The notes: generated by a model from the letters alone, not told the origin. A DNA stretch of 64,000 nt from an uncultured Pseudobdellovibrionaceae bacterium (GCA_964648725.1 CAZYOE010000001.1:7424-71423); one strand, 5' to 3'. Numbered from the stretch's first letter, positions 20,677 to 61,969 are shown. Program-made: numbers and translations.

Positions 20677-21231
20677 TTAAACACTAGTGGGGGCAGAATT
20701 CGTAGCCGTCTTCTTTTCAAACCACATTAATGCAATGAGAACCATCACACCTAGTACAATAGCACTATCTGCGACGTTGAACGCCGGCCAACTATACTTT
20801 TCATAGAGATGAAAGTCCAAAAAGTCGATAACATAACGAAAACGAATACGATCAATATAATTCCCGATGGCTCCACCAAAAATGCTGCTTAACGCAAAAA
20901 TTTGCCAACGATCTTTATCCGATACGCCTCTTAAAATCGCGAGAATGATGATCATTGCAATCGGTGGGATTAAGAGAAAAAATATTTCACGAAACTCAGG
21001 ATGGCTCTCAGCTAAAAAACCAAAGGCGGCGCCTGGGTTTCGAACATAGGTAATGTTAAAGAAGTTTTGAATCACCGTGATTGATTCACCTAATTGAAAG
21101 CGCGTGTGAATATAAAGCTTGGTTACTTGATCCAAAGCTACTGCAAACGTTGACCAAGCGATCAGAAAAACATATTTAAACTTCATGATGAATCCCCAAT
21201 ATACAATGAAAAACTCTATGAAGTTTAGCAT
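20677..21231 (-). CDS. lspA: Lipoprotein signal peptidase (signal peptidase II)
   Basis: DQVTK, NPGAAFGF, GGAIGNYIDR, FNVADSAI motifs. An internal ATG at 21186 is an alternative start. Confidence 0.9.
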   Translation of the reverse strand: MLNFIEFFIVYWGFIMKFKYVFLIAWSTFAVALDQVTKLYIHTRFQLGESITVIQNFFNITYVRNPGAAFGFLAESHPEFREIFFLLIPPIAMIIILAILRGVSDKDRWQIFALSSIFGGAIGNYIDRIRFRYVIDFLDFHLYEKYSWPAFNVADSAIVLGVMVLIALMWFEKKTATNSAPTSV

Positions 21232-21271
21232 CTAGTGAGGTCATCACACAATAATCTATTTTTCTTATCGG

Positions 21272-21925
21272 TTAAAATTGCGAACGCATCTTCTGATAAC
21301 CCATCGCAATTAACAAACGAACCGCTTCGGTTTCAGAACTCAAATTAAAATGGTTTTTAACTTCCTGAATCATTGTCCAGCTGCGCGCATCCAATACACT
21401 CCGCAAATCCTGCCCCTGAGGGACATTAACCATAGCATTAAAGAGTGGTAACCCAGGGTCTGGAGCTAATGAGGCAATGCTAGGAACTGGTGGTGTGGCT
21501 ATTGCTCCAATTGGCATTTGAGGCATCAAAGGGCCTGCAGGGGTTTGCGTTTGGGGGACTGAAAATGCAGAAGTCTGACTCGATGGCGGCGCGGAAGGAG
21601 GGACCGTTAATGAAGACGTGGCTGATGACGCTGCTGTATATGGACTTCGATCCGCAACTGCGGCGGTTGCAGAACTCTTGGCGCCCAGTTGACTCTCATC
21701 AAACTCACCCATCATTGACGCGAGGTTTTTTAGCTCAGTCTTAAAGCCTTGAAGATTTGTTCGACTGAGATAATTCTCACCATGCATTTGGGCTTTTGAG
21801 TAGAGCGCCACAAGAACATCCGGTGACTTTGCCAACTCCTGGACGTGAGGGGGCTGAGACCGTAACCAATTATAGGCCTGAATCAGAGTCTCTTTTGTGT
21901 AAGCCTGAGGTGGCAAATGCATCAT
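21272..21925 (-). CDS. Hypothetical protein with a P/S/T/A-rich central linker
   Basis: 217 aa. Two small ordered ends separated by ~90 aa of low complexity (SSATSSLTVPPSAPPSSQTS...). Confidence 0.45.
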   Translation of the reverse strand: MMHLPPQAYTKETLIQAYNWLRSQPPHVQELAKSPDVLVALYSKAQMHGENYLSRTNLQGFKTELKNLASMMGEFDESQLGAKSSATAAVADRSPYTAASSATSSLTVPPSAPPSSQTSAFSVPQTQTPAGPLMPQMPIGAIATPPVPSIASLAPDPGLPLFNAMVNVPQGQDLRSVLDARSWTMIQEVKNHFNLSSETEAVRLLIAMGYQKMRSQF

Positions 21926-22051
21926 CTGAATTATTCTTAGTCAAAGTTTAGGATTAGTGTGAACTGAAGGGTTTTAACGCTCGCCACAAAGAACGGCAAC
22001 TAAAACCCCTAATTGAACCTTAAATCCTCTGGAAACGGTGCTCCAAGCGGA

Positions 22052-23557
22052 TTACAAAGTATAGTCTTTTGCATTTATACCGTATTTTTCGATTTTCCTT
22101 AATAAAGTTTTTTTAGGAATATTTGCATGAAGTGCTGTCTGATTAATACGCCCACGAAATGCCTTTAAAGCCCTGATAATAAAGTCCTTTTCAAAAGCTT
22201 CCTTCTGCATATTAAAATCAAAGGTTGGATCAGAAACAGAGGCACCGGCTGGATGCTCAAAATCCTCCTCGGCATCATCACCCAAATCCATTTCCAAACC
22301 TAATTGTGCAGTCGGTGCTAATGCAAACGCCACTGGAGTTTCAGTATTGGCAAGAACCTCCTGCCAATCTTTAAGAGTGATCCCCACTGCCTGAAGTACA
22401 AACTCTGGTAAGGACGCTAGAGTAATCTGATCGGAATTCTCCATTACAAAGGCGTGTTCAATCACGTTTTCAAGTTCACGAATATTTCCCGGCCAATCAT
22501 AGCGAATCAAAACCTGCATCGATGCAGGATCAACACCAGTGACTTTTTTGCTATGAACTTGGTTGAACTTGCGAACAAACAAATTGATCATGGTGGGTAT
22601 ATCGTCTCTGCGCTCGCTCAACTGAGGGAGAAATATAGGAATAACATTTAAACGATAAAATAAATCCTCTCTAAACGTTCCTTGCTTAATCATGTCTTCG
22701 AGGGGTCTGTTTGTCGCAGCGATGATTCTCACGTTGGTTTGAATTTCCCGCAATGATCCCACGGGAGTAAAAACTTTTTCTTGTAAAACTCGGAGCAACT
22801 TGACTTGCATGTGCAAGGGCAAATCACCCACTTCATCTAAAAAGAGGGTTCCTCCCTCGGCAAATTGAAATTTGCCGATTTTGCGTTGATCGGCTCCAGT
22901 AAAAGACCCTTTTTCATGACCAAAAAATTCTGATTCAAATAAGTTTTCCGGAACGGCAGAGCAATTAACTGCTACAAATTTTTCATCTTTGCGAGCCGAA
23001 TTGAAGTGAATGGCTCTTGCCACCACCTCTTTACCTGTTCCTGAGGCTCCTCGAATCAAAACTGGAGTATCTACTTTAGATACGCGTTCGATAATACTGA
23101 ACACCTTCTGCATTTGTGCAGTATTCCCGATAATTTTACGACCTTGCTCCATTAAAACGGGTGCCGACACCGCAACATTAGAGATTAATCGATGGGCCTC
23201 AATAGCTTTTTCTAAAACTTGAATGAGGTCATCACCACTGACGGGCTTTGCCAAATAGTTATAGGCACCATCTTTGACTGCTTGCACAGCATTATCAATC
23301 GTTGCAAAAGCGGTCATAATTAAAACGATAGTCTCAGGGTTAAGGGCTTTAATTTGTTTGAGTGCTTCAAGACCTGAAAGGCGTGGCATATCGACATCAA
23401 GGATGACAACGTCGAAAGACTGCCTTTTTACTTTTTCCAAGGCATCAATGCCGTCAAAAGCTTCTTCAACTTCGTACTTTTGAGTGCTTAAAAGCACACC
23501 TTTTAAGGCAGTTCTTAGGCCTTGATCATCATCAACAACCAGCACTCTGAGCGCCAT
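22052..23557 (-). CDS. NtrC-family sigma-54-dependent response regulator (REC + AAA+ + HTH)
   Basis: ATG at 23557 behind a GGGAGGA SD (the ORF track starts at GTG 23575). REC VLVVDDD...ILDVDMPRLSG...KP. GASGTGKE, ESEFFGHEKGSFTGA. C-terminal HTH after a long acidic linker. Confidence 0.9.
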   Translation of the reverse strand: MALRVLVVDDDQGLRTALKGVLLSTQKYEVEEAFDGIDALEKVKRQSFDVVILDVDMPRLSGLEALKQIKALNPETIVLIMTAFATIDNAVQAVKDGAYNYLAKPVSGDDLIQVLEKAIEAHRLISNVAVSAPVLMEQGRKIIGNTAQMQKVFSIIERVSKVDTPVLIRGASGTGKEVVARAIHFNSARKDEKFVAVNCSAVPENLFESEFFGHEKGSFTGADQRKIGKFQFAEGGTLFLDEVGDLPLHMQVKLLRVLQEKVFTPVGSLREIQTNVRIIAATNRPLEDMIKQGTFREDLFYRLNVIPIFLPQLSERRDDIPTMINLFVRKFNQVHSKKVTGVDPASMQVLIRYDWPGNIRELENVIEHAFVMENSDQITLASLPEFVLQAVGITLKDWQEVLANTETPVAFALAPTAQLGLEMDLGDDAEEDFEHPAGASVSDPTFDFNMQKEAFEKDFIIRALKAFRGRINQTALHANIPKKTLLRKIEKYGINAKDYTL

Positions 23558-24330
23558 AGTTCCTCCCGGCCACACTTAACCTTGCCAATTTACGTCCCGT
23601 GCCAGTCATAACTCATTGTATTAAAATAACAAGTATAAAAATCTTTGAGGGCGCTCAAAAAAAATCTAATGACTTTTACTATTCATTAGTAATTTTAACA
23701 ATTTAAAGAGGCGGTTTTCACCCTCAATTGTGACGACTTTCCCAAGGAGCTGTCAATTCAGTTTGGAATGGCATTGCCCGTTGTTCCTTGCCGGGTCTCC
23801 GAAGGGTCTCCGAATTATAGAAGGTGACTCAATTTGTTAGGACCTAGGTCGAATATTGTTTTAGAAAGAAAAAAGTCCATCAAACAAGACCTTTCGCATA
23901 AGCTTTAATTACCAGAAAAAACTCGCGGAGGTACAAGGATGGACTTCTCTAATCTCATCACTATTGCTCTAGACGATTAGGAATTCCAAAGCGGAAAGTA
24001 TGGCTTTCCAGAGGCCCTCAAAAGCCGGTCACAAAGAGCTTTCGAGTGACTTGAATGGGGCGTTTTCAACAATTTGCTGCTAAACAAGGATTATGTTTCA
24101 GCGGACGGGCGTGAAAATGGACTATTCAAAATCCTCCAAAGATGCGGTTATTTAAACTCAAAATACATTGATACAACTGGATTGTTTTGGGGACCAAATA
24201 ACAAGTTGGCACAAAGTACCCCCTTCTAATAAACGGAGAGGGCTTGCTCTTTCTGATTTGCAGGGCCCTTTCGTCAAAGACTTCGACACTCCCCAGTAGC
24301 ATTAAACAGCTTTTGTTTGCCCCGCGACCC

Positions 24331-24346
24331 TGGCATGAATGTCGCA
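24331..24346 (+). promoter_or_regulatory. Sigma-54 (-24/-12) type promoter
   Basis: TGGCAT-gaatg-TCGCA: GG and GC are separated by exactly 10 nt (consensus TGGCAC-N5-TTGCA). Lies ~40 nt upstream of the SD/ATG at 24384. Confidence 0.55.
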
Positions 24347-24383
24347 TAAAGAAAACTACACGATGATGAAAGGGAGAAAACAA

Positions 24384-24860
24384 ATGAATTCCGCAAAATC
24401 CTATTGGATAGCTTCATTATTAACAGTTTGTCTTTTTGCAAGCGGTTGCGCTACAGATATCAGTTCAAATTCTTACTCTGACGCCCACGTAGGAGAGGCC
24501 GCCCGCAGCTACCGTGGAGTAGTGGTTAAAGTTCGTACCGTAAAAGTCGGACCAGATCAGCTAGAGAAAAGTAAAGCGGGAACGATGGTTGGTGGAGCTT
24601 CAGGTGCTGCGATCGGCAGTCAATTTGGATCTGGAACCGGAAAGTTAATTATGACCGGTGTCGGAGCCGTGGCTGGAGCTATCGGCGGAGCCTATGCAGA
24701 AAAATCGATGAAAAGTCAAAATGCCTTAGAAATCACAATTGAACTGAAAAATGGCGATATGCGAACAGTTGTTCAAGGAGCTGATGTTAATTTCTCAACA
24801 GGCGAAGCCATAATGCTTATGACTTATAAAAAAGGCAGATCAAAAATCGTTAAACTTTAA
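24384..24860 (+). CDS. Glycine-zipper outer-membrane lipoprotein (SlyB / 17-kDa antigen-like)
   Basis: ATG at 24384 behind an AAGGGAG SD (the ORF track ATG at 24339 lies inside the promoter). Lipobox LFASGC. Gly-zipper GGASGAAIGSQFGSGTGK...GVGAVAGAIGGAYA. Confidence 0.75.
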   Translation: MNSAKSYWIASLLTVCLFASGCATDISSNSYSDAHVGEAARSYRGVVVKVRTVKVGPDQLEKSKAGTMVGGASGAAIGSQFGSGTGKLIMTGVGAVAGAIGGAYAEKSMKSQNALEITIELKNGDMRTVVQGADVNFSTGEAIMLMTYKKGRSKIVKL

Positions 24861-24917
24861 AACTTAGTAGTTTTTAACTTACATTCGAGAAAAAAATTCT
24901 GGCACAGTGTAAATTTA

Positions 24918-26783
24918 TTAGTTGGTTAATGGGAGCTCAATCGTAAAGGTTGAGCCCTTGTTTTCCTCACTTGATGCTGTCAACGTTCCGTTGTGCAACT
25001 CAACAAAGTACCTCGATAAGTATAAGCCCAAGCCTGATCCCTTAACCTCTGAATTCTTAGCCTTTCTGCTTCTGAAAAATTTCATAAATAAACGCGGCAA
25101 CTCATCGTCTGGAATTCCAATTCCTTGATCCTTCACCTGAATAAAAACCTTATTATCTTTTTCTTCTGTTTTCACCGTGATCTGCGCTTCCGTCGGACTG
25201 TACTTGATAGCATTTTCCACGAGATTTAAAATTACTTGGCGAATCAAATCAGGATCGATTTTCATGCTGAACAGAGGTTCAAGCTCTTTAATAACTTTTA
25301 TCTTTTTCTCTTTCGCTAAATAGTCTGTTTTCTGCAGAACCTCTTCAATTAAAGTATTCACGTCTTTGCTCTTCAAATTGAGTTGCACGCCTTCCGTTTC
25401 CAAACGGCTAAAGTTAAGAATCGAACTAATAAAATTCAGCAAATCCTCTGTGGAGCTCTGAATCGATTTAACCGCCTGCCGTTGGTCATCACTCAGTGCG
25501 TTTTTATCGCGAAGAACAATTTCAATCATCCCTTGAATTCTGGCCAAGGGTGTTTTCAGATCATGCGACATCATTCCAATGAAGTTGTTTTTGAGTTCTT
25601 CAACCTGTGTAAGCAATTTATTTTTTTGATAAAGCTCCCAACTTCGCCGATTTTCCATAATGAGGCGATAGGGAATCAAAAAATAATAGGCCACAAAAAC
25701 CCCAAGCAATGGATGAGCCATATTAATCCAATACCCAAATGGCCAAAATGCGATGAAGGAACTGGTTGCAAAAACTAATAGTGTGATCCCTAGAACGGTC
25801 ATTCCTTTGATCGGCTTCATCGCCAAAACAACTTCAAGTGACAAAATTACCAAGAGCATTACGATCAAAAAATTGATCCAGCGAGGTATCGCTTTTACCC
25901 CTGAGTTACGAATGAGTGAGTTTAACATATTAGCATGGGCCTCAACAGCAGTCATCGCTGTAACCTGCCGCGAATATGGAGTTTTAATATACTCATGAGT
26001 GCTTTGCCCAAGATCCGTTCCCACAAAAATAATCTTGTTGTTGAATCGGCCTTTGGTAAATTTGGAGCCCACTATGTCAATAAAACTTGTTTTAGGAAAA
26101 GTGCCGGCAGGAGCCATGTCTATATAGGCCTGCTCGCTATCATAAAAATCAAAACGACCTCGTATATTATGGGGCAAGGCACGCTCAGGAATAACTTGGC
26201 TAGCTAAATACGGATGGAACAAAATATTGCCTTGATACGTTAGCATCATTCGTCTGGTCACACCATCCTGAGCTAAAATCTTCGAATCCGAAGTAATCGG
26301 ACCCGACAAAACACGAATTTCCCTGAGTGGGCCAGGCAAATCAAACTTACCAACCTCACCGCGCATCGCAAGCTCATCGGTGACAAAATAAAATCCCGGC
26401 AACGAGAGGGCAAGTTCGGCAAAAACTTTGCGTTCAGAATCTTTACCGACTAGATCTTTTGGGTTAAGCAGGTAAACGACCACTTTGGGGTTTTCATTTT
26501 TCAATTGAGTTAAAAACCGAATATGTTGTTGAAGAGTGGGTATGCCTGGAGCGGTCTGAACTGTAACAGGATCTATAATAACTGTCTCGATCAGCTTACT
26601 CGCCAAAGGAGCAGGCCTAATCATAGTCCGTAAGTCATAAAGATAAGATTCAAAGTAATCAAGAGGCAGTAAGAGAACAACGACCGAAATAATTGCCGCC
26701 AAAATCCATCGTAATAGCCTAAAGGAAGTTCTTTTATTCAGTTTTTTAATAAGTAGATTCGCACTTCCTTGCGACTTTCGCAC
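24918..26783 (-). CDS. CHASE2-domain sensor histidine kinase
   Basis: 621 aa. N-terminal TM, ~270-aa extracytoplasmic domain, three clustered TMs, H box MSHDLKTPL, N/G boxes (NLVENAIKYS, DQGIGI, GSGLGL). Confidence 0.85.
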   Translation of the reverse strand: MRKSQGSANLLIKKLNKRTSFRLLRWILAAIISVVVLLLPLDYFESYLYDLRTMIRPAPLASKLIETVIIDPVTVQTAPGIPTLQQHIRFLTQLKNENPKVVVYLLNPKDLVGKDSERKVFAELALSLPGFYFVTDELAMRGEVGKFDLPGPLREIRVLSGPITSDSKILAQDGVTRRMMLTYQGNILFHPYLASQVIPERALPHNIRGRFDFYDSEQAYIDMAPAGTFPKTSFIDIVGSKFTKGRFNNKIIFVGTDLGQSTHEYIKTPYSRQVTAMTAVEAHANMLNSLIRNSGVKAIPRWINFLIVMLLVILSLEVVLAMKPIKGMTVLGITLLVFATSSFIAFWPFGYWINMAHPLLGVFVAYYFLIPYRLIMENRRSWELYQKNKLLTQVEELKNNFIGMMSHDLKTPLARIQGMIEIVLRDKNALSDDQRQAVKSIQSSTEDLLNFISSILNFSRLETEGVQLNLKSKDVNTLIEEVLQKTDYLAKEKKIKVIKELEPLFSMKIDPDLIRQVILNLVENAIKYSPTEAQITVKTEEKDNKVFIQVKDQGIGIPDDELPRLFMKFFRSRKAKNSEVKGSGLGLYLSRYFVELHNGTLTASSEENKGSTFTIELPLTN

Positions 26784-26824
26784 ACGGCCTCCCTCTTCAA
26801 TTAAAACTGAAGATATACGGAGGT

Positions 26825-26983
26825 TTAGTCCCGATCAATAATATTTCCTGTGGGGACACATCCATGACCTTCTGTCATAAGAATAGAGCTTTTAACTCCC
26901 TTGGATTTTTTGTCCTTAATCTTGCTTTCGAAACTGTTTTTAGACTCAATTGATTTCGGCTTACATAGCTTAATGTGTTTCAT
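26825..26983 (-). CDS. 52-aa Lys-rich small peptide; candidate precursor peptide for the upstream radical SAM enzyme
   Basis: AGGAGG-N7-ATG (ATG at 26983), 14 nt before the rSAM stop codon. Sequence: MKHIKLCKPKSIESKNSFESKIKDKKSKGVKSSILMTEGHGCVPTGNIIDRD. The ORF-track start at 27007 has no SD. Confidence 0.55.
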   Translation of the reverse strand: MKHIKLCKPKSIESKNSFESKIKDKKSKGVKSSILMTEGHGCVPTGNIIDRD

Positions 26984-28262
26984 CGGAAGACCTCCTATAT
27001 TTTTCATAATACATCAGTGAAGTAAGGATCAAGCTTTGGGTTCGATCACAGAAAATTGGATCAACCTTTAAGCTGCTCCCTGAACTTTTTTTGTGGGTAT
27101 AATTACATCCACCACCACAAAGATATTTAGCCCAGCATGTTCGGCAGAGATTTTTTTCATTTTGGGGAGCTCGATATTCTGCTAACTTTTCAACTTGAAT
27201 CTCGTTACCTGAATTAAGTTTTAAAGTTTTTTCATTTATATCCCAAGGGCATGCATAAAGATCCCCTTTTGCGTCCATTGAAAGCAAAGACTTACCGGAG
27301 CCACAAAAGTTCTCCAAGCGCAGCTGTTCATCAAGACGCTGAAATAGCCCGTCAAAGATTCTGATCTTGCGAAGCTCATCCTCCCCGCCAATTTTATCGG
27401 CGTACTCAGCAACGGCATGCATCCCTCGACTAAAGTCCTGACTCGCATGTGCATCAAAATCGGTGTGAGAATAGTTTAATTCGTAGAAGTCAAAGTCCCA
27501 CTTGAGGAAGTATTTATAGGCATCTACCACTGCCACGTGGTCTTTGTGGAAAACCGCCGCCAATCCTACGCTCGGTAGACGGTTCTTAATTTCACGAATA
27601 CAATGAAGACCCTTTTCCAATTCAACGCTTGAACCCTGCCCGCCTTTTTGAGGACGAAAATGATCTTGAACTTCGGGCGGACCATCTACACTGACCGTTA
27701 CCGCCATTCGATATTCCAAAAGTAGCTGGAGGACATTATTATCAGACAATCGGGTTCCATTAGTGACTACCGCAAACCGCAAGGCCACTTCCGCTTTTTC
27801 TGCAAATTCTTTGGCTCGCTCAGCTATTACTCTGATGATCTCAGGGTACAATAAAGGCTCACCCCCTAAGAAATTGATCTGAAATCTCTCACCGGGAAGG
27901 CATCTTGACACTAACCACCCTAGTTGTGGCAAAGCCATATTAAGATCAATTTTTACAATTGGAGCCCCATATGAGCCATCCCCACCTGCTGCGCAATAAG
28001 CACACCTTAAATTACAAAGCTGCGTTGAATTTATGGTAAGTGTCTTAACTTTTTGCTCATTAGATGATTTCCGCACACTTGTATTTATTGAATCAGACCA
28101 AGCCTTTAACTCAGAAAGTTCCTCACCTGGCTCACCTTTTTTTAAGGCTCCCCATAACTCTTCACTCAACTGAGCTACTTCAAGGTTTTCATTATGAAAA
28201 CCCATAATTTCTCCTGAAGAAAGTTTAAAGATGCTTATTTTTTCAAACTGTACTGGTGTCAT
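26970..28262 (-). CDS. Radical SAM / SPASM-domain enzyme (peptide-maturase-like, anSME superfamily)
   Basis: 430 aa. CNLRCAYC at residues 83-90, GGEPLLYP. SPASM cysteines CGSGK...GDLYACPW, CRTCWAKYLCGGGC, ...IFC. ~75-aa N-terminal extension before the SAM cluster. Confidence 0.85.
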   Translation of the reverse strand: MTPVQFEKISIFKLSSGEIMGFHNENLEVAQLSEELWGALKKGEPGEELSELKAWSDSINTSVRKSSNEQKVKTLTINSTQLCNLRCAYCAAGGDGSYGAPIVKIDLNMALPQLGWLVSRCLPGERFQINFLGGEPLLYPEIIRVIAERAKEFAEKAEVALRFAVVTNGTRLSDNNVLQLLLEYRMAVTVSVDGPPEVQDHFRPQKGGQGSSVELEKGLHCIREIKNRLPSVGLAAVFHKDHVAVVDAYKYFLKWDFDFYELNYSHTDFDAHASQDFSRGMHAVAEYADKIGGEDELRKIRIFDGLFQRLDEQLRLENFCGSGKSLLSMDAKGDLYACPWDINEKTLKLNSGNEIQVEKLAEYRAPQNEKNLCRTCWAKYLCGGGCNYTHKKSSGSSLKVDPIFCDRTQSLILTSLMYYEKYRRSSDETH

Positions 28263-28315
28263 TTCGGCTTCCCATGGTCCAAAACAGGACTAACCTCAAG
28301 GACTACTGCAAATTA

Positions 28316-28331
28316 AATGCCTCGTCTTTGG
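28316..28331 (-). promoter_or_regulatory. Candidate sigma-54 (-24/-12) promoter of the rSAM operon
   Basis: The minus strand reads AGGCAT-ttaat-TTGCA. GG-N10-GC spacing is exact and the -12 TTGCA is perfect. ~45 nt upstream of the rSAM ATG (28262). Confidence 0.45.
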
Positions 28332-28369
28332 ACCCAAAAAGTTTATTTCAATGGACGCATTAGAATGCG

Positions 28370-29368
28370 GTGGTGGATTCTATATCTATGAGCTTAAGAA
28401 TTGATTTTTGGGGAGTCAGAGGATCACTTCCTTTTGCACTAAGCCCCGTGGATTTAGCTAATGATTTTCGCGCCTACATGGTTCGCTTCTTTGAGCAAGG
28501 CTATGTGGGCACGCAGGATATTGATCGCTATCTTCAGACAATCGGCACAGCTACCCTTGGTGGTTATGGGACAGCAACAACATGTGTGCAGGCGACTTCA
28601 GATAACGAATCCATAATTATTGATGCAGGAACCGGGCTCAAACTACTTGGGGATCGATTATTAGAGGGGCCAGCAGGCCAAGGTGATGCAAGTATTCATC
28701 TTTTTCTGAGTCACTTTCATTGGGACCATTTGATCGGACTTCCTTACTTTGCTCCAGCTTTCATTGAAGGAAATGAAATTAATATTTATGCAGTTCAAAA
28801 TAATGTTGAACAACTTATTAGAGATTATCTTAGGCACCCATTGGTAGAACGAGACCTCGACTCTTGGGGAAGCCGAGTCAACTTTCATGTGCTGCCACCG
28901 AGATCTGCCTTAACTCTAGGTGATATGTCGGTGACTCCCTATATGATGGATCATCCGGACTCCTGTTGGGGTTTTAGGATTTCCAGCGGTGGAAAAAATT
29001 ACGCCCACTGTGCGGATACTGAAGCGACAAGAGTGACTCATCATAGTTTAGGCGAAGATTTACCCATGTATCAAAACGTTGATTTGATGTATTTTGATGC
29101 CCAATATACATTGGGTGAATTGGCAGACAGAATAAACTGGGGCCATAGCGCGGCTCAAATCGGACTAGATTTAGCCTTCAAAGAAAAAATTAAACACGTT
29201 TTATTTTCTCATCACGACCCAATCTCAACATCCAGTACAATCAACATGTTGGTCCGACAAACTGAAGAGTATTACCGTTGGAAACTCGAACAAGCCGGGA
29301 AGCAAAACATTATTTTACCTCCCGTGGAATGGAGCTTTGTCTACGAAGGACAAAGCGTCTATCTTTAA
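28370..29368 (+). CDS. MBL-fold metallo-hydrolase
   Basis: 332 aa. HFHWDH (HxHxDH) motif, later ...GHS and HHD. Possible ATG start at 28388. Divergent from the rSAM operon. Confidence 0.8.
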   Translation: MVDSISMSLRIDFWGVRGSLPFALSPVDLANDFRAYMVRFFEQGYVGTQDIDRYLQTIGTATLGGYGTATTCVQATSDNESIIIDAGTGLKLLGDRLLEGPAGQGDASIHLFLSHFHWDHLIGLPYFAPAFIEGNEINIYAVQNNVEQLIRDYLRHPLVERDLDSWGSRVNFHVLPPRSALTLGDMSVTPYMMDHPDSCWGFRISSGGKNYAHCADTEATRVTHHSLGEDLPMYQNVDLMYFDAQYTLGELADRINWGHSAAQIGLDLAFKEKIKHVLFSHHDPISTSSTINMLVRQTEEYYRWKLEQAGKQNIILPPVEWSFVYEGQSVYL

Positions 29369-29757
29369 TTGACTTTAGTTTTAATTTTATAAGTTCCTTC
29401 AGAGTGACACATTTGGCCTTCTGAACCCTGCTGAGAGCATTCAACTTTACCGCAATCAATAGCAATCACTTTACTATCTTGGTTCATTTCTTTGATTTCT
29501 TTTTTCCATTGATTACAAGCCTGCTTCCAACTAGCTCTTGCTTCTTTTACTAGTACATTTGGTTCTCCTTCAACCTGTCCTGTTCCATCAACGATCTCAT
29601 ATAGTTTTTCACACTTAGTGGCAGTAGCCCCTTTTTTAATTGATATCGTTGTATCTTCACTCATTGGAATTTCTGTGACCGACGTTTTTTGCGCCCAACC
29701 ACTGCACACTGCAAATACAACGACTGTTGCCGTAAAAATTGATTTTAACCAAAACAT
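29365..29757 (-). CDS. Small secreted Cys-containing protein
   Basis: ATG at 29757 behind a GGAGG SD. Signal peptide MFWLKSIFTATVVVFAVCSGWA. Five further Cys residues in the mature part (after the signal peptide). Confidence 0.5.
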   Translation of the reverse strand: MFWLKSIFTATVVVFAVCSGWAQKTSVTEIPMSEDTTISIKKGATATKCEKLYEIVDGTGQVEGEPNVLVKEARASWKQACNQWKKEIKEMNQDSKVIAIDCGKVECSQQGSEGQMCHSEGTYKIKTKVN

Positions 29758-60053: not shown

Positions 60054-61685
60054 CTATTCGACAATTTTGACCCCAGTGAGATCTAGATCAAGACCAACAG
60101 GATGACGAGCAACTCCCTGAACTTTATCCTTGTGAGTATACATTATTGTTCTTTCGTAAGTCGGGATGATTGGCAGTTCCTCTAGCAGGATCTTCTCCGC
60201 TGCAGCCATCTCTGCCATACGAACTTTTTGGTCGATGGTGCTCATGGCGTTGCGAACATGGGCATCGTAGTCTTTATTAGCCCACAATCCACGGTTATTT
60301 CCATTCCAGGAAGCAAATAAATCAACAAAGGTCAGCGCATCGGCATAATCAGGTCCCCATCCCGCGGCCACGATATCAAAATCACCGGAAGTCATTTTAG
60401 CGAGACGTTGCTTAAAGATCTGTCGATCGATTTTTACGTCAATACCTAAGGTCGTTTTAAGCAGACTTTGCATGTACTCAGACTCACGAATCGCATGTTC
60501 GGTGTCGTCAGTGAGCCAAACTAAACTAGGCGGCGTCTTCAGACCAAGCTCTTGCATAGCTTTAGCCATATATTCCTTAGCAGCGATGAGATTCGGTTTT
60601 GAAAGTGCGACTGGAAATTCTTTTCGGAAGTTCTGCTTTTCGCCTTTCATCCACGATGGCACTAGTCCAGTTCCAGGAGCCGTACCTGGGATACCGACCA
60701 CACGGCTTACAAACTCCGTTGGGTTAAAAACAGAGCGAATCGCTAACCTTAGGTTTTTGTTCGCAGTGTATCTTCCTTTTCTAAAGTTAAAGCTCCAATA
60801 AAATAGTGTACCATCAACAAATTTTTTCAGTTTAAAATTTTCACGTTGAGCATTGGCTAAGTTTTCTTTGCTGAGCTGTTGAATGATATCAATTTTTTGG
60901 GTTTTGAAGAGGTTAAAACGAGCATTTGCATCAGGAGTGATATAAGGAATGTCGATGACTTCAAGCTGAACCTTGGCTTGGTTCCAGTATTTGTCATTCT
61001 TTTCCATGCGAAGACTGGCTCCATGAACCCATTGTGTCAGTGCAAAAGGTCCATTAAATATCATATTATCAGGCCCGGAGGCATACTTGTCTTTTTTGCT
61101 GGTTACAAAATCTTCTCTCAGTGGGAAATAAGCTGCAAATGATGTCAAACCCAAAAAATAACCACAGGGTTTTTCAAAGGTCACTTCCAGAGTCTGAGGA
61201 TCTTTCGCTTCAACTCCCAATTTATTAATGGGTAACTTCCCTTGATTGATCAACTCTCCATTCTTAAGAGCATAAAGAATAAAGGCATATTCGCTAGCTG
61301 TTCTAGGATCTAGGGCCCGCTGCCAGGAATAAACAAAGTCTTGAGCCTGAACTGGCTTGCCATCACTCCAACGCGCTTCTTTGCGCAAATGAAAAGTGGC
61401 ACCCTTCTCAGTTAATTCCCATTTTTCGGCCACACCGGGGACTACATTTCCTTTCTCGTCATACCTCGTTAGTCCTTCCATCGTATGACCAATAACAAAG
61501 AAACTCTCGGTGTCTGTTGCTTTACTGGAATCTAAGTTTGGCGGCTCAGTGGTTAAGGCTAACGTAATGGTTTTTTTCGCACTAGCACTGGCCTTTGGGC
61601 CAACTAGGGTTAGAAGGCCTAATGCGGCAATTAGAGTCAATTTGACACCAGTTTTAAAAAGTACATCAGCGTTAATGCTTTTCAT
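60054..61685 (-). CDS. ABC transporter substrate-binding protein, family 5 (OppA-type)
   Basis: ATG at 61685 behind a GGGGGAG SD (the ORF track starts at 61763). Signal peptide ...LVGPKASA. SBP_bac_5-like length and pattern. Confidence 0.85.
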   Translation of the reverse strand: MKSINADVLFKTGVKLTLIAALGLLTLVGPKASASAKKTITLALTTEPPNLDSSKATDTESFFVIGHTMEGLTRYDEKGNVVPGVAEKWELTEKGATFHLRKEARWSDGKPVQAQDFVYSWQRALDPRTASEYAFILYALKNGELINQGKLPINKLGVEAKDPQTLEVTFEKPCGYFLGLTSFAAYFPLREDFVTSKKDKYASGPDNMIFNGPFALTQWVHGASLRMEKNDKYWNQAKVQLEVIDIPYITPDANARFNLFKTQKIDIIQQLSKENLANAQRENFKLKKFVDGTLFYWSFNFRKGRYTANKNLRLAIRSVFNPTEFVSRVVGIPGTAPGTGLVPSWMKGEKQNFRKEFPVALSKPNLIAAKEYMAKAMQELGLKTPPSLVWLTDDTEHAIRESEYMQSLLKTTLGIDVKIDRQIFKQRLAKMTSGDFDIVAAGWGPDYADALTFVDLFASWNGNNRGLWANKDYDAHVRNAMSTIDQKVRMAEMAAAEKILLEELPIIPTYERTIMYTHKDKVQGVARHPVGLDLDLTGVKIVE

Positions 61686-61969
61686 GAGTAAATCTCCCCC
61701 GGAATCTTGTCCTTTGACTAAAAAGTTAGTCGTCCCTAGGGGGATTTGCAATGAAGATGCCATAAACTTTAGAGCCGTTTTGACTCACGCCGATAAGCAA
61801 ATTTTATTGCTAACAAAATTTTTTTAACTGGCCAACACCATATTAGTTACAAATACATTTAAATTTCGAATCACTTTGACTTCCCCCCGAACGAAAAAAT
61901 CGCCTCTATTTGTTTCTTCCAATCTTATTGCCCCAACATCTTTAGGATATAAACCTTTGGGCAAAATTC

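Follow-up and report, generated by a model that had tools for sequence, protein, structure and literature searches.

The present data suggest that a 64,000-nucleotide (nt) stretch of DNA from an uncultured Pseudobdellovibrionaceae bacterium (GCA_964648725.1 CAZYOE010000001.1:7424-71423; hereafter the window, with positions counted from its first letter) carries a sigma-54-dependent two-component operon that is probably self-activating. In the interpretation that we consider reasonably probable, the backbone consists of a CHASE2 sensor histidine kinase together with an activator of the NtrC type and is found widely across the class Bdellovibrionia, a cassette of a radical SAM/SPASM peptide maturase and a small precursor peptide serves as its output, and a lipoprotein gene has been inserted into the unit in this genome.

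In the window the maturase, peptide and kinase genes make up one co-directional minus-strand unit behind a conserved sigma-54 element (Table 1). A preliminary description of the region had claimed that these three genes are co-directional and tightly spaced, and that a regulator with REC, AAA+ and helix-turn-helix (HTH) domains lies about 1.3 kb beyond the kinase gene. All are present as described: the peptide open reading frame (ORF) overlaps the maturase stop by 14 nt and ends 41 nt ahead of the kinase gene, and the activator gene lies 1.34 kb past the latter. The same description had placed a -24/-12 element, AGGCAT-N5-TTGCA, in front of the maturase gene at 28316-28331; the sequence is real, but its position was out by 9 nt, the true site being 28307-28322 on the minus strand. 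The kinase combines a first transmembrane segment, a CHASE2 domain (residues 31-315, the periplasmic portion spanning about 45-300), further transmembrane segments, HisKA and HATPase_c. It has the H-box SHDLKTP and is predicted to pair with the regulator, which carries REC, AAA+ (with GSFTGA) and HTH domains.

Comparison with relatives supports this arrangement. A search of 40 relatives, with 20 loci fetched, was extended by 80 further loci from named genomes, giving a sample of ~100 Bdellovibrionales loci. In 19 of the first 20 relatives the maturase gene, a small ORF, the CHASE2 kinase gene, the activator gene and a fifth gene encoding a protein of 150-260 aa, here called hyp217, were co-directional and tightly spaced, and the 80 further loci, including those of Bdellovibrio spp. 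(B. bacteriovorus among them) and Pseudobdellovibrionaceae, showed the same order practically everywhere the contig was long enough. The other genera of the family were represented by 24 sampled genomes, 22 of which had the maturase gene, and the activator is 60-82% identical to the product of the gene 3' of the kinase in relatives. Within the genus of the window genome the order is more labile. One genome (G001) has the canonical order, another (G003) has the activator divergent from the maturase, and a third (G002) has activator and kinase on the opposite strand; in each arrangement, the two rearranged ones included, the four module genes stay within 6-7 kb. Kinase and activator genes are adjacent in nearly all of the ~100 relatives, with gaps mostly of 0-150 nt. 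The pairing of the two, offered at the outset as inference, thus has strong comparative support at the level of sequence. The expectation that five genes would be syntenic in relatives held for maturase, peptide, kinase and activator, but not for the lipoprotein gene, which is missing from the locus in all relatives examined.

Two lines of evidence point to a sigma-54 promoter in front of the maturase gene. First, the element is well placed. Its GG and GC dinucleotides are 10 nt apart, with the GC ~45 nt before the ATG at 28262. Both this element and the one preceding the lipoprotein gene have two mismatches to TGGCAC-N5-TTGCW, with A for T at -26 in the former and TCGCA for TTGCA in the latter, and both stand on the coding strand shortly before a gene, 35-60 nt ahead of the start codon, where ~0.006 sites are expected per 100 nt. 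Sites with at most two mismatches are not rare in themselves, since the window contains seven, near the expectation from the genome-wide rate (640 in 10.8 Mb of both strands), and the case for a promoter consequently rests on placement together with conservation. Secondly, the element is conserved. When the 300 nt upstream of the maturase gene were surveyed for the GG/GC core, with 2000 random 300-nt windows of the same loci as control, a core with at most three mismatches was found in 68 of 77 loci (88%) compared with 7% of random windows, and one with at most two mismatches in 39 of 77 compared with 1.5%. All 10 maturase-bearing loci from other families have the element. As a negative control, the intergenic gaps between activator and hyp217 at the same loci contained such an element in only 2 of 36 cases, so that hyp217 showed none of its own in this survey. 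The maturase element is alignable in genomes of the same genus, and its conservation is not mere inherited sequence identity, because spacers differ between genera. Variants with TG in the place of GG at -24, TTGCAT-N5-TTGCA or ATGCAC-N5-TTGCA, form the orthologous promoter at several loci (L040/L061 of G004, L029/L093, L082 and L039). The genome encodes the required sigma factor (rpoN, 458 bits against a cut-off of 277) and ~21 enhancer-binding proteins (EBPs; 21 strong Sigma54_activat matches).

Further upstream, Bdellovibrio loci carry an IHF-like box, TAAGTAnnTGAAAT, before the element, and one of these is a perfect YAANNNNTTGATW. A CCTTTTGCACC motif precedes the maturase promoter in 22 of 51 de-duplicated loci compared with 9%, and was enriched five-fold in the survey. 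As judged from sequence, an enhancer motif, an IHF-like bend and a -24/-12 element constitute the classical layout of a sigma-54 promoter. None of several candidate motifs tried could be defined as a shared upstream activator site. Among them, a GGTGTC-N-GACACC palindrome lies near promoters in several other genera and was rejected, being absent from the window's region. Tandem sigma-54-like elements with a 23-nt period also occur upstream of the maturase in two loci, three copies of CGGAACGCCTGTTGC[CT] in L155 (G162), ~360-270 nt upstream of the maturase match, and two in L125.

The activator may in addition have a promoter of its own. The element CTTGTTATTTTAATACAATGAGTTATGAC is kept upstream of the activator gene in all four genomes of the same genus whatever lies upstream, among them G001, whose activator gene comes straight after the kinase gene, and it is probably a sigma-70-type promoter. 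A scan of the region for the sigma-70 consensus gave no more sites than shuffled sequence. A promoter at CTTGTTATTTTAATACAATGAGTTATGAC would supply basal activator, and would explain why genomes of this genus tolerate a moved or separated activator gene.

According to the mechanism that we propose, the phosphorylated activator would open the sigma-54 promoter, and the modified peptide would then be produced, along with additional sensor and, in most relatives, additional activator. The widely shared unit would be the kinase-activator operon, whose autoregulation we infer from the promoter element in front of it. In Bdellovibrionaceae, Pseudobdellovibrionaceae and some neighbouring families the cassette of maturase and 27-61-aa precursor would be placed between promoter and kinase, and its peptide would be primarily an output, produced in the prey-associated phase. 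In the window genome the operon appears to have been split after the kinase gene by an insert of ~1.3 kb, made up of the lipoprotein gene with its sigma-54 promoter and of dispersed repeats, and here the activator is probably transcribed from its own conserved sigma-70-like promoter.

That the peptide is an output, and not an obligate signal, is suggested by loci that lack it. As many as 118 of the 151 genomes from this class encode the CHASE2 kinase as a single-copy ortholog, and at 35 sampled loci the kinase, activator and hyp217 genes are intact while the maturase and this peptide are missing. In the 450 nt that precede the kinase gene, 21 of these 35 loci (~60%) have a sigma-54 element, in most cases ~90 nt before the gene. 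Consequently the sensor does not seem to depend on the peptide, and we regard an output as the more likely role. The layout had originally been likened to peptide-based autoinduction, in which the modified peptide would leave the cell and act as ligand of the periplasmic CHASE2 domain, so that kinase, activator and promoter would form a self-amplifying pheromone circuit. We consider such a circuit unlikely, even though peptide, maturase, sensor and regulator are united across the group and stay together after rearrangements, the promoter-proximal peptide gene resembles operons of the agr/com type, and CHASE2 is extracytoplasmic, with no ligand found for it in our literature searches. Also in favour of such a circuit is one family without the maturase (f10), in which a conserved Lys-rich small ORF lies between promoter and kinase. 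However, the sensor and the peptide do not strictly co-occur, most of the 35 loci have the promoter directly before the kinase with no small ORF, and no dedicated processing or export was found: it had been remarked that no exporter or protease is visible at the locus, and among the genes flanking ~100 loci no exporter, peptidase or signal sequence for the peptide is conserved either. It is doubtful that a one-Cys modified peptide released while the predator grows in its prey is the natural ligand of CHASE2, timing or coordinating the predatory cycle; if that were true, Bdellovibrio-type predators would have a self-amplifying peptide signal, and it could be the first CHASE2 ligand.

The Lys-rich ORF of family f10 differs from the precursor described here, reading MEFKSKI[KR]K...ISTSP..F, and most loci without the maturase have none. 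In one family without the maturase, a small ORF of another kind, MEFKSKIKKEAVKKPKGMISTSPSEYF or MEFKSKIRKVASKKLTNMISTSPEDIF, with a good ribosome-binding site occupies the interval between sigma-54 element and kinase at L147, L175 and L179 (G033, G113 and G134).

The lipoprotein gene requires a different explanation. It had been described as a SlyB-like gene between kinase and activator with its own -24/-12 element, and both gene and element (TGGCAT-N5-TCGCA at 24331-24346) are real. The product has a lipobox (...LFASGC) and matches PF05433 with 27.2 bits against a cut-off of 24.2. Since the sigma-54 element, 38 nt before the ATG at 24384, overlaps the mechanical ORF start at 24339, translation must begin at that ATG, behind AAGGGAG. 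Outside the window genome the gene was absent from the module locus in every relative examined and had no match in the four genomes of the same genus. Close orthologs (63-64% identity) were seen only in another family, in G040 and G028, beside ribonucleotide reductase or sugar-nucleotide genes and with no activator nearby. They carry TGGTCTGGTTCTTGCT and TGGTCCCGTTCTTGCT at the equivalent place, TGG-N9-TTGCT ~40 nt before the start codon, and the lipoprotein gene therefore looks sigma-54-dependent in its own right, with a promoter that it brought along. The 0.8-kb interval between lipoprotein and activator contains no convincing gene. It does contain a repeat of ~155 nt with at least 40 copies in this genome (87-97% identity), often on short contigs, and no fewer than 15 in G004 (76-82%), which folds no more stably than shuffled sequence; the repeat is part of the non-coding stretch that arrived with or after the insertion. 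From this comparison of sequences the lipoprotein gene is best read as a recent lineage-specific insertion with its own sigma-54 promoter, outside the circuit. A misassembly at the repeats was considered and rejected, because both flanks of the insert are syntenic neighbours in relatives.

The lipoprotein had also been proposed as a second output of the circuit. It is improbable that it is a true member of this activator's regulon, its landing between kinase and activator having been selected and not accidental. The well-placed element, conserved in the orthologs, would fit such membership, as would the presence of an orthologous kinase-activator pair in both ortholog holders and a TTTGG-N2-3-CCAAA palindrome that lies beside the maturase element and again 130 nt upstream of the lipoprotein element. 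Against this stand the absence of the gene from the locus in relatives, the unrelated neighbourhoods in which its orthologs keep an element of their own, the ~21 EBPs that could drive it, and the lack upstream of it of CCTTTTGCACC, the motif enriched at maturase promoters. As to the palindrome, we rejected it as a shared activator site: on the lipoprotein side it belongs to a repeat that recurs in nearly identical form on two further contigs, and only 4 of its 56 genomic sites are near a sigma-54 element.

The cassette itself encodes, as judged from sequence conservation, a real peptide family with a conserved leader and a single Cys. A peptide ORF is found between maturase and kinase in almost every locus, with two copies in two loci. 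Among 56 precursors of 27-61 aa, the leader K-H-I-K-K-[VIL]-K-P was found in 50, often beginning from the initiator Met, and a single Cys in 52, located 3-12 residues from the C-terminus, with Pro at +2 in 51. The window precursor has a leader that fits K-H-I-K-[KL]-x-K-P and a core Cys followed by x-Pro, and in a subgroup from a neighbouring family C-P-E replaces C-x-P. No Pfam or NCBIfam model matches the precursor.

The maturase has the CxxxCxxC motif (C83, C87 and C90) and seven SPASM cysteines (C320, C338, C373, C376, C382, C386 and C405), all invariant in 44 sequences. Among proteins of solved structure, the thermocellin maturase CteB (PDB 5WGG, E 4e-47) is closest to it in sequence, and the AlphaFold2 (AF2) model of the enzyme (pLDDT 92) aligns by Foldseek with full-length CteB at a TM score of 0.80, N-terminal domain included. 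In the model this RRE-like domain, with strands at 4-32 and helices at 34-57 before the core, matches the leader-recognition domain of CteB. NCBIfam scores nevertheless remain far below the cut-offs for all curated models, also for the four that score best (SCIFF TIGR03974, 115 against 425 bits; PapB NF047865, 159 against 340; nif11-type TIGR04064, 167 against 519; QhpD TIGR03906, 118 against 453), which on sequence grounds makes the enzyme a relative, and not a member, of these equivalogs. Because CteB is the closest relative by both sequence and fold, leader-recognition domain included, a Cys-donor thioether is the most likely chemistry. The RRE-like domain presumably binds the K-H-I-K-K-x-K-P leader, and the single C-terminal Cys would most likely be joined to a nearby residue by a thioether bond.

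Alternatively, no thioether would be formed, and the Cys of the C-x-P-x-(R) core would be converted to formylglycine, as by the sulfatase-maturating enzyme anSME, or undergo other chemistry, to yield an intracellular cofactor or reactive peptide that is not secreted. The Bdellovibrio cores C-I-P-V-R and C-L-P-I-R do match the sulfatase signature C-x-P-x-R, anSME is a clear relative in structure (TM 0.66 to the maturase model) and in sequence (E 4e-20), and the missing exporter recalls PQQ and mycofactocin clusters, which are not known to have one. This chemistry is nevertheless very unlikely. The residue at +4 is Arg in only 6 of 56 precursors and most often Gly, and in one subgroup the core reads C-P-E; the match to the anSME model (69 bits, cut-off 349) is weaker than those to the CteB, PapB, nif11-type and QhpD-type models; and the enzyme has an N-terminal domain of the leader-binding type, which anSME lacks and which accounts for the lower TM score of anSME over the query length. 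We can also set aside the extremely improbable case that both -24/-12 matches are due to chance and that ordinary promoters transcribe the genes, as the unexceptional number of such sites in the window and the departures of both elements from consensus might suggest, since an element stands at the orthologous position, with spacers that diverge, in 88% of loci compared with 7% of controls, the lipoprotein orthologs keep theirs as well, and an activator gene lies within the unit together with the promoter.

Published data on B. bacteriovorus HD100 agree in part with a self-activating operon induced in predation. By exact-sequence clusters the maturase corresponds to Bd3357 (annotated 'heme biosynthesis'), the kinase to Bd3359 and the activator to Bd3360 ('zraR'). 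Bd3359 and Bd3360 were among the sensor-regulator genes up in predation and not in host-independent growth (Lambert et al. 2010, PMC2797640). In a 2025 tandem-mass-tag (TMT) proteome (PMC12546842), with log2 values relative to the starting 'AP+Ec' sample, Bd3360 reached +1.96 at 3 h and was below its starting level by 6-7 h, Bd3359 reached +0.86 at 3 h and was still above its starting level at 7 h, and Bd3357 peaked at about +0.27 at 2 h and fell to -1.0 at 7 h. Bd3359 further appears in the small 'predatory core genome' of a comparative study (PMC3526173). These three papers do not mention the peptide, the function of the maturase or sigma-54 wiring, neither a 2025 preprint nor the accessible part of the Karunker 2013 supplement has an entry for or mentions the module's HD100 genes, and literature searches covering radical SAM, CHASE2 and RpoN in Bdellovibrio, as well as CHASE2 ligands, turned up no account of the module.

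The proposal of a self-activating operon should be interpreted with some caution, since several observations weigh against it. The normally invariant GG at -24 is replaced by TG in three lineages, and ~40% of the loci without maturase have no recognisable sigma-54 element. The CCTTTTGCACC motif is limited to 22 of 51 de-duplicated loci, and its only copy in the window is at 28430, inside a divergent gene for a metallo-beta-lactamase (MBL)-fold hydrolase. Moreover, that this activator, among ~20 others in the genome, acts on the maturase promoter is something that we infer from adjacency and conservation of sequence, and the HD100 proteome shows far smaller changes for the maturase than for the activator (PMC12546842).

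The features of the locus are collected in Table 1.

Table 1. Genes, promoter elements and repeats of the module region, with positions in the window.
Feature	Position	Strand	Basis
Radical SAM/SPASM peptide maturase, 430 aa	26970..28262	-	CteB-like; Pfam/NCBIfam scans, PDB 5WGG match, AF2/Foldseek
Precursor peptide, 52 aa, MKHIKLCKPK...GHGCVPTGNIIDRD	26825..26983	-	Homologous small ORF between maturase and kinase in essentially all loci
CHASE2-HisKA-HATPase_c sensor histidine kinase, 621 aa	24918..26783	-	Domain scan; single-copy ortholog in 118/151 genomes of the class
Glycine-zipper lipoprotein (SlyB/17-kDa-antigen type), 158 aa	24384..24860	+	PF05433 and lipobox; convergent with kinase gene
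NtrC-type activator (EBP)	22052..23575, start likelier ATG 23557 (MALRVLVVDD)	-	REC, AAA+ with GSFTGA, lid, Fis-type HTH
hyp217, 217 aa, function unassigned	21272..21925	-	Conserved fifth gene 3' of activator in nearly all relatives
Putative sigma-54 -24/-12 element AGGCATTTAATTTGCA (AGGCAT-N5-TTGCA), upstream of maturase	28307..28322	-	Consensus match and conservation
Putative sigma-54 -24/-12 element TGGCATGAATGTCGCA (TGGCAT-N5-TCGCA), upstream of lipoprotein	24331..24346	+	Consensus match and elements of orthologs
Dispersed repeat copy, ~155 nt	23973..24128		Copies elsewhere in genome
Second repeat, holding TTTTGGGGACCAAA and TTGGCAC	24160-24225		Almost identical copies on C207 and C390, two other contigs of this genome
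Conserved element CTTGTTATTTTAATACAATGAGTTATGAC, 29 nt, TTGTTA-N16-TATGAC, upstream of activator	23605..23633	-	Kept in all four same-genus genomes
MBL-fold hydrolase gene (Lactamase_B_2)	28370-29368	+	Divergent from maturase gene

The hyp217 gene follows the activator whether or not the locus has a maturase. Strong conservation is seen at the N-terminus (NPLPPQAYTK...W) and at the C-terminus (NLSS..EALR.LI..G) of its product, on either side of a disordered linker rich in Pro, Ser and Gln, and the AF2 model shows two helical domains joined by that linker; no Pfam or NCBIfam family, PDB sequence match or fold match was found for it. In many relatives the MBL-fold gene is found no more than a few kb from the module, and in some it is directly upstream and co-directional; its product might act in the peptide pathway, though nothing points to this. 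An Rfam scan of 21000-29500 returned only two sub-threshold snoRNA-like chance matches. The best sigma-54 match of the whole window, TGGCATCTTCATTGCA at 61747-61762 on the minus strand, has one mismatch and runs across the mechanical start of a 569-aa ORF on that strand (60054..61763); that gene may start further downstream.

If the proposed organization is correct, a kinase-activator pair that is nearly universal in Bdellovibrionia, with HD100 orthologs induced in predation, probably has its own operon as first target, and in most Bdellovibrio-type predators this operon begins with an undescribed modified-peptide cassette. This would make a regulatory switch of the predation stage accessible to experiment, add a new family to the precursors of CteB-like enzymes and open a possible way towards a CHASE2 ligand. 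The lipoprotein, in turn, illustrates how regulon inference from adjacency in a single genome may mislead.

Several known systems resemble the module in part. Pheromone operons of the agr and com type likewise combine a peptide, a modifying enzyme, a histidine kinase and a response regulator in one autoregulated unit. They differ in that they encode processing and export (AgrB, ComAB) and that their kinase strictly needs the peptide, whereas here no exporter was found and kinase orthologs persist without the peptide. The streptide system is similar in placing the operon of a radical-SAM-modified peptide under signal-transduction control, and there the peptide is an output and is not known to be the signal. 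The cytoplasmic regulator of that system, Rgg, is the receptor of an imported pheromone, and a transporter gene belongs to the operon; in the present case the operon itself encodes the two regulatory proteins, and it has no transporter. Streptide was found during quorum-sensing studies, and its expression depends on the Rgg regulator (PMC8326336).

On the enzymatic side, the SCIFF/thermocellin pair (CteA/CteB) and the ranthipeptide maturases PapB and QhpD share the RRE-radical SAM-SPASM build with the maturase described here, and CteB is the closest solved relative. SCIFF systems are minimal two-gene cassettes of precursor and maturase with no dedicated exporter or protease known, and in this the present module is alike. 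The maturase nevertheless falls far below the curated cut-offs for the SCIFF, PapB, QhpD and nif11-type families, and, compared with SCIFF, the precursor has one Cys instead of six and a different leader, and the cassette occurs in Bdellovibrionia and not Clostridia, inside a sigma-54 two-component operon. On the regulatory side the module comes close to glnA-ntrB-ntrC (glnALG), which likewise has a sigma-54 promoter, a cargo gene, a kinase and an NtrC-type activator, with the positive autoregulation that we propose here. In glnALG a second, weak promoter supplies basal activator, and CTTGTTATTTTAATACAATGAGTTATGAC is the candidate counterpart. The two systems differ in that the sensor is a membrane CHASE2 kinase here and the cytoplasmic NtrB there, and in that the cargo is a peptide-maturase pair where glnALG carries glutamine synthetase.

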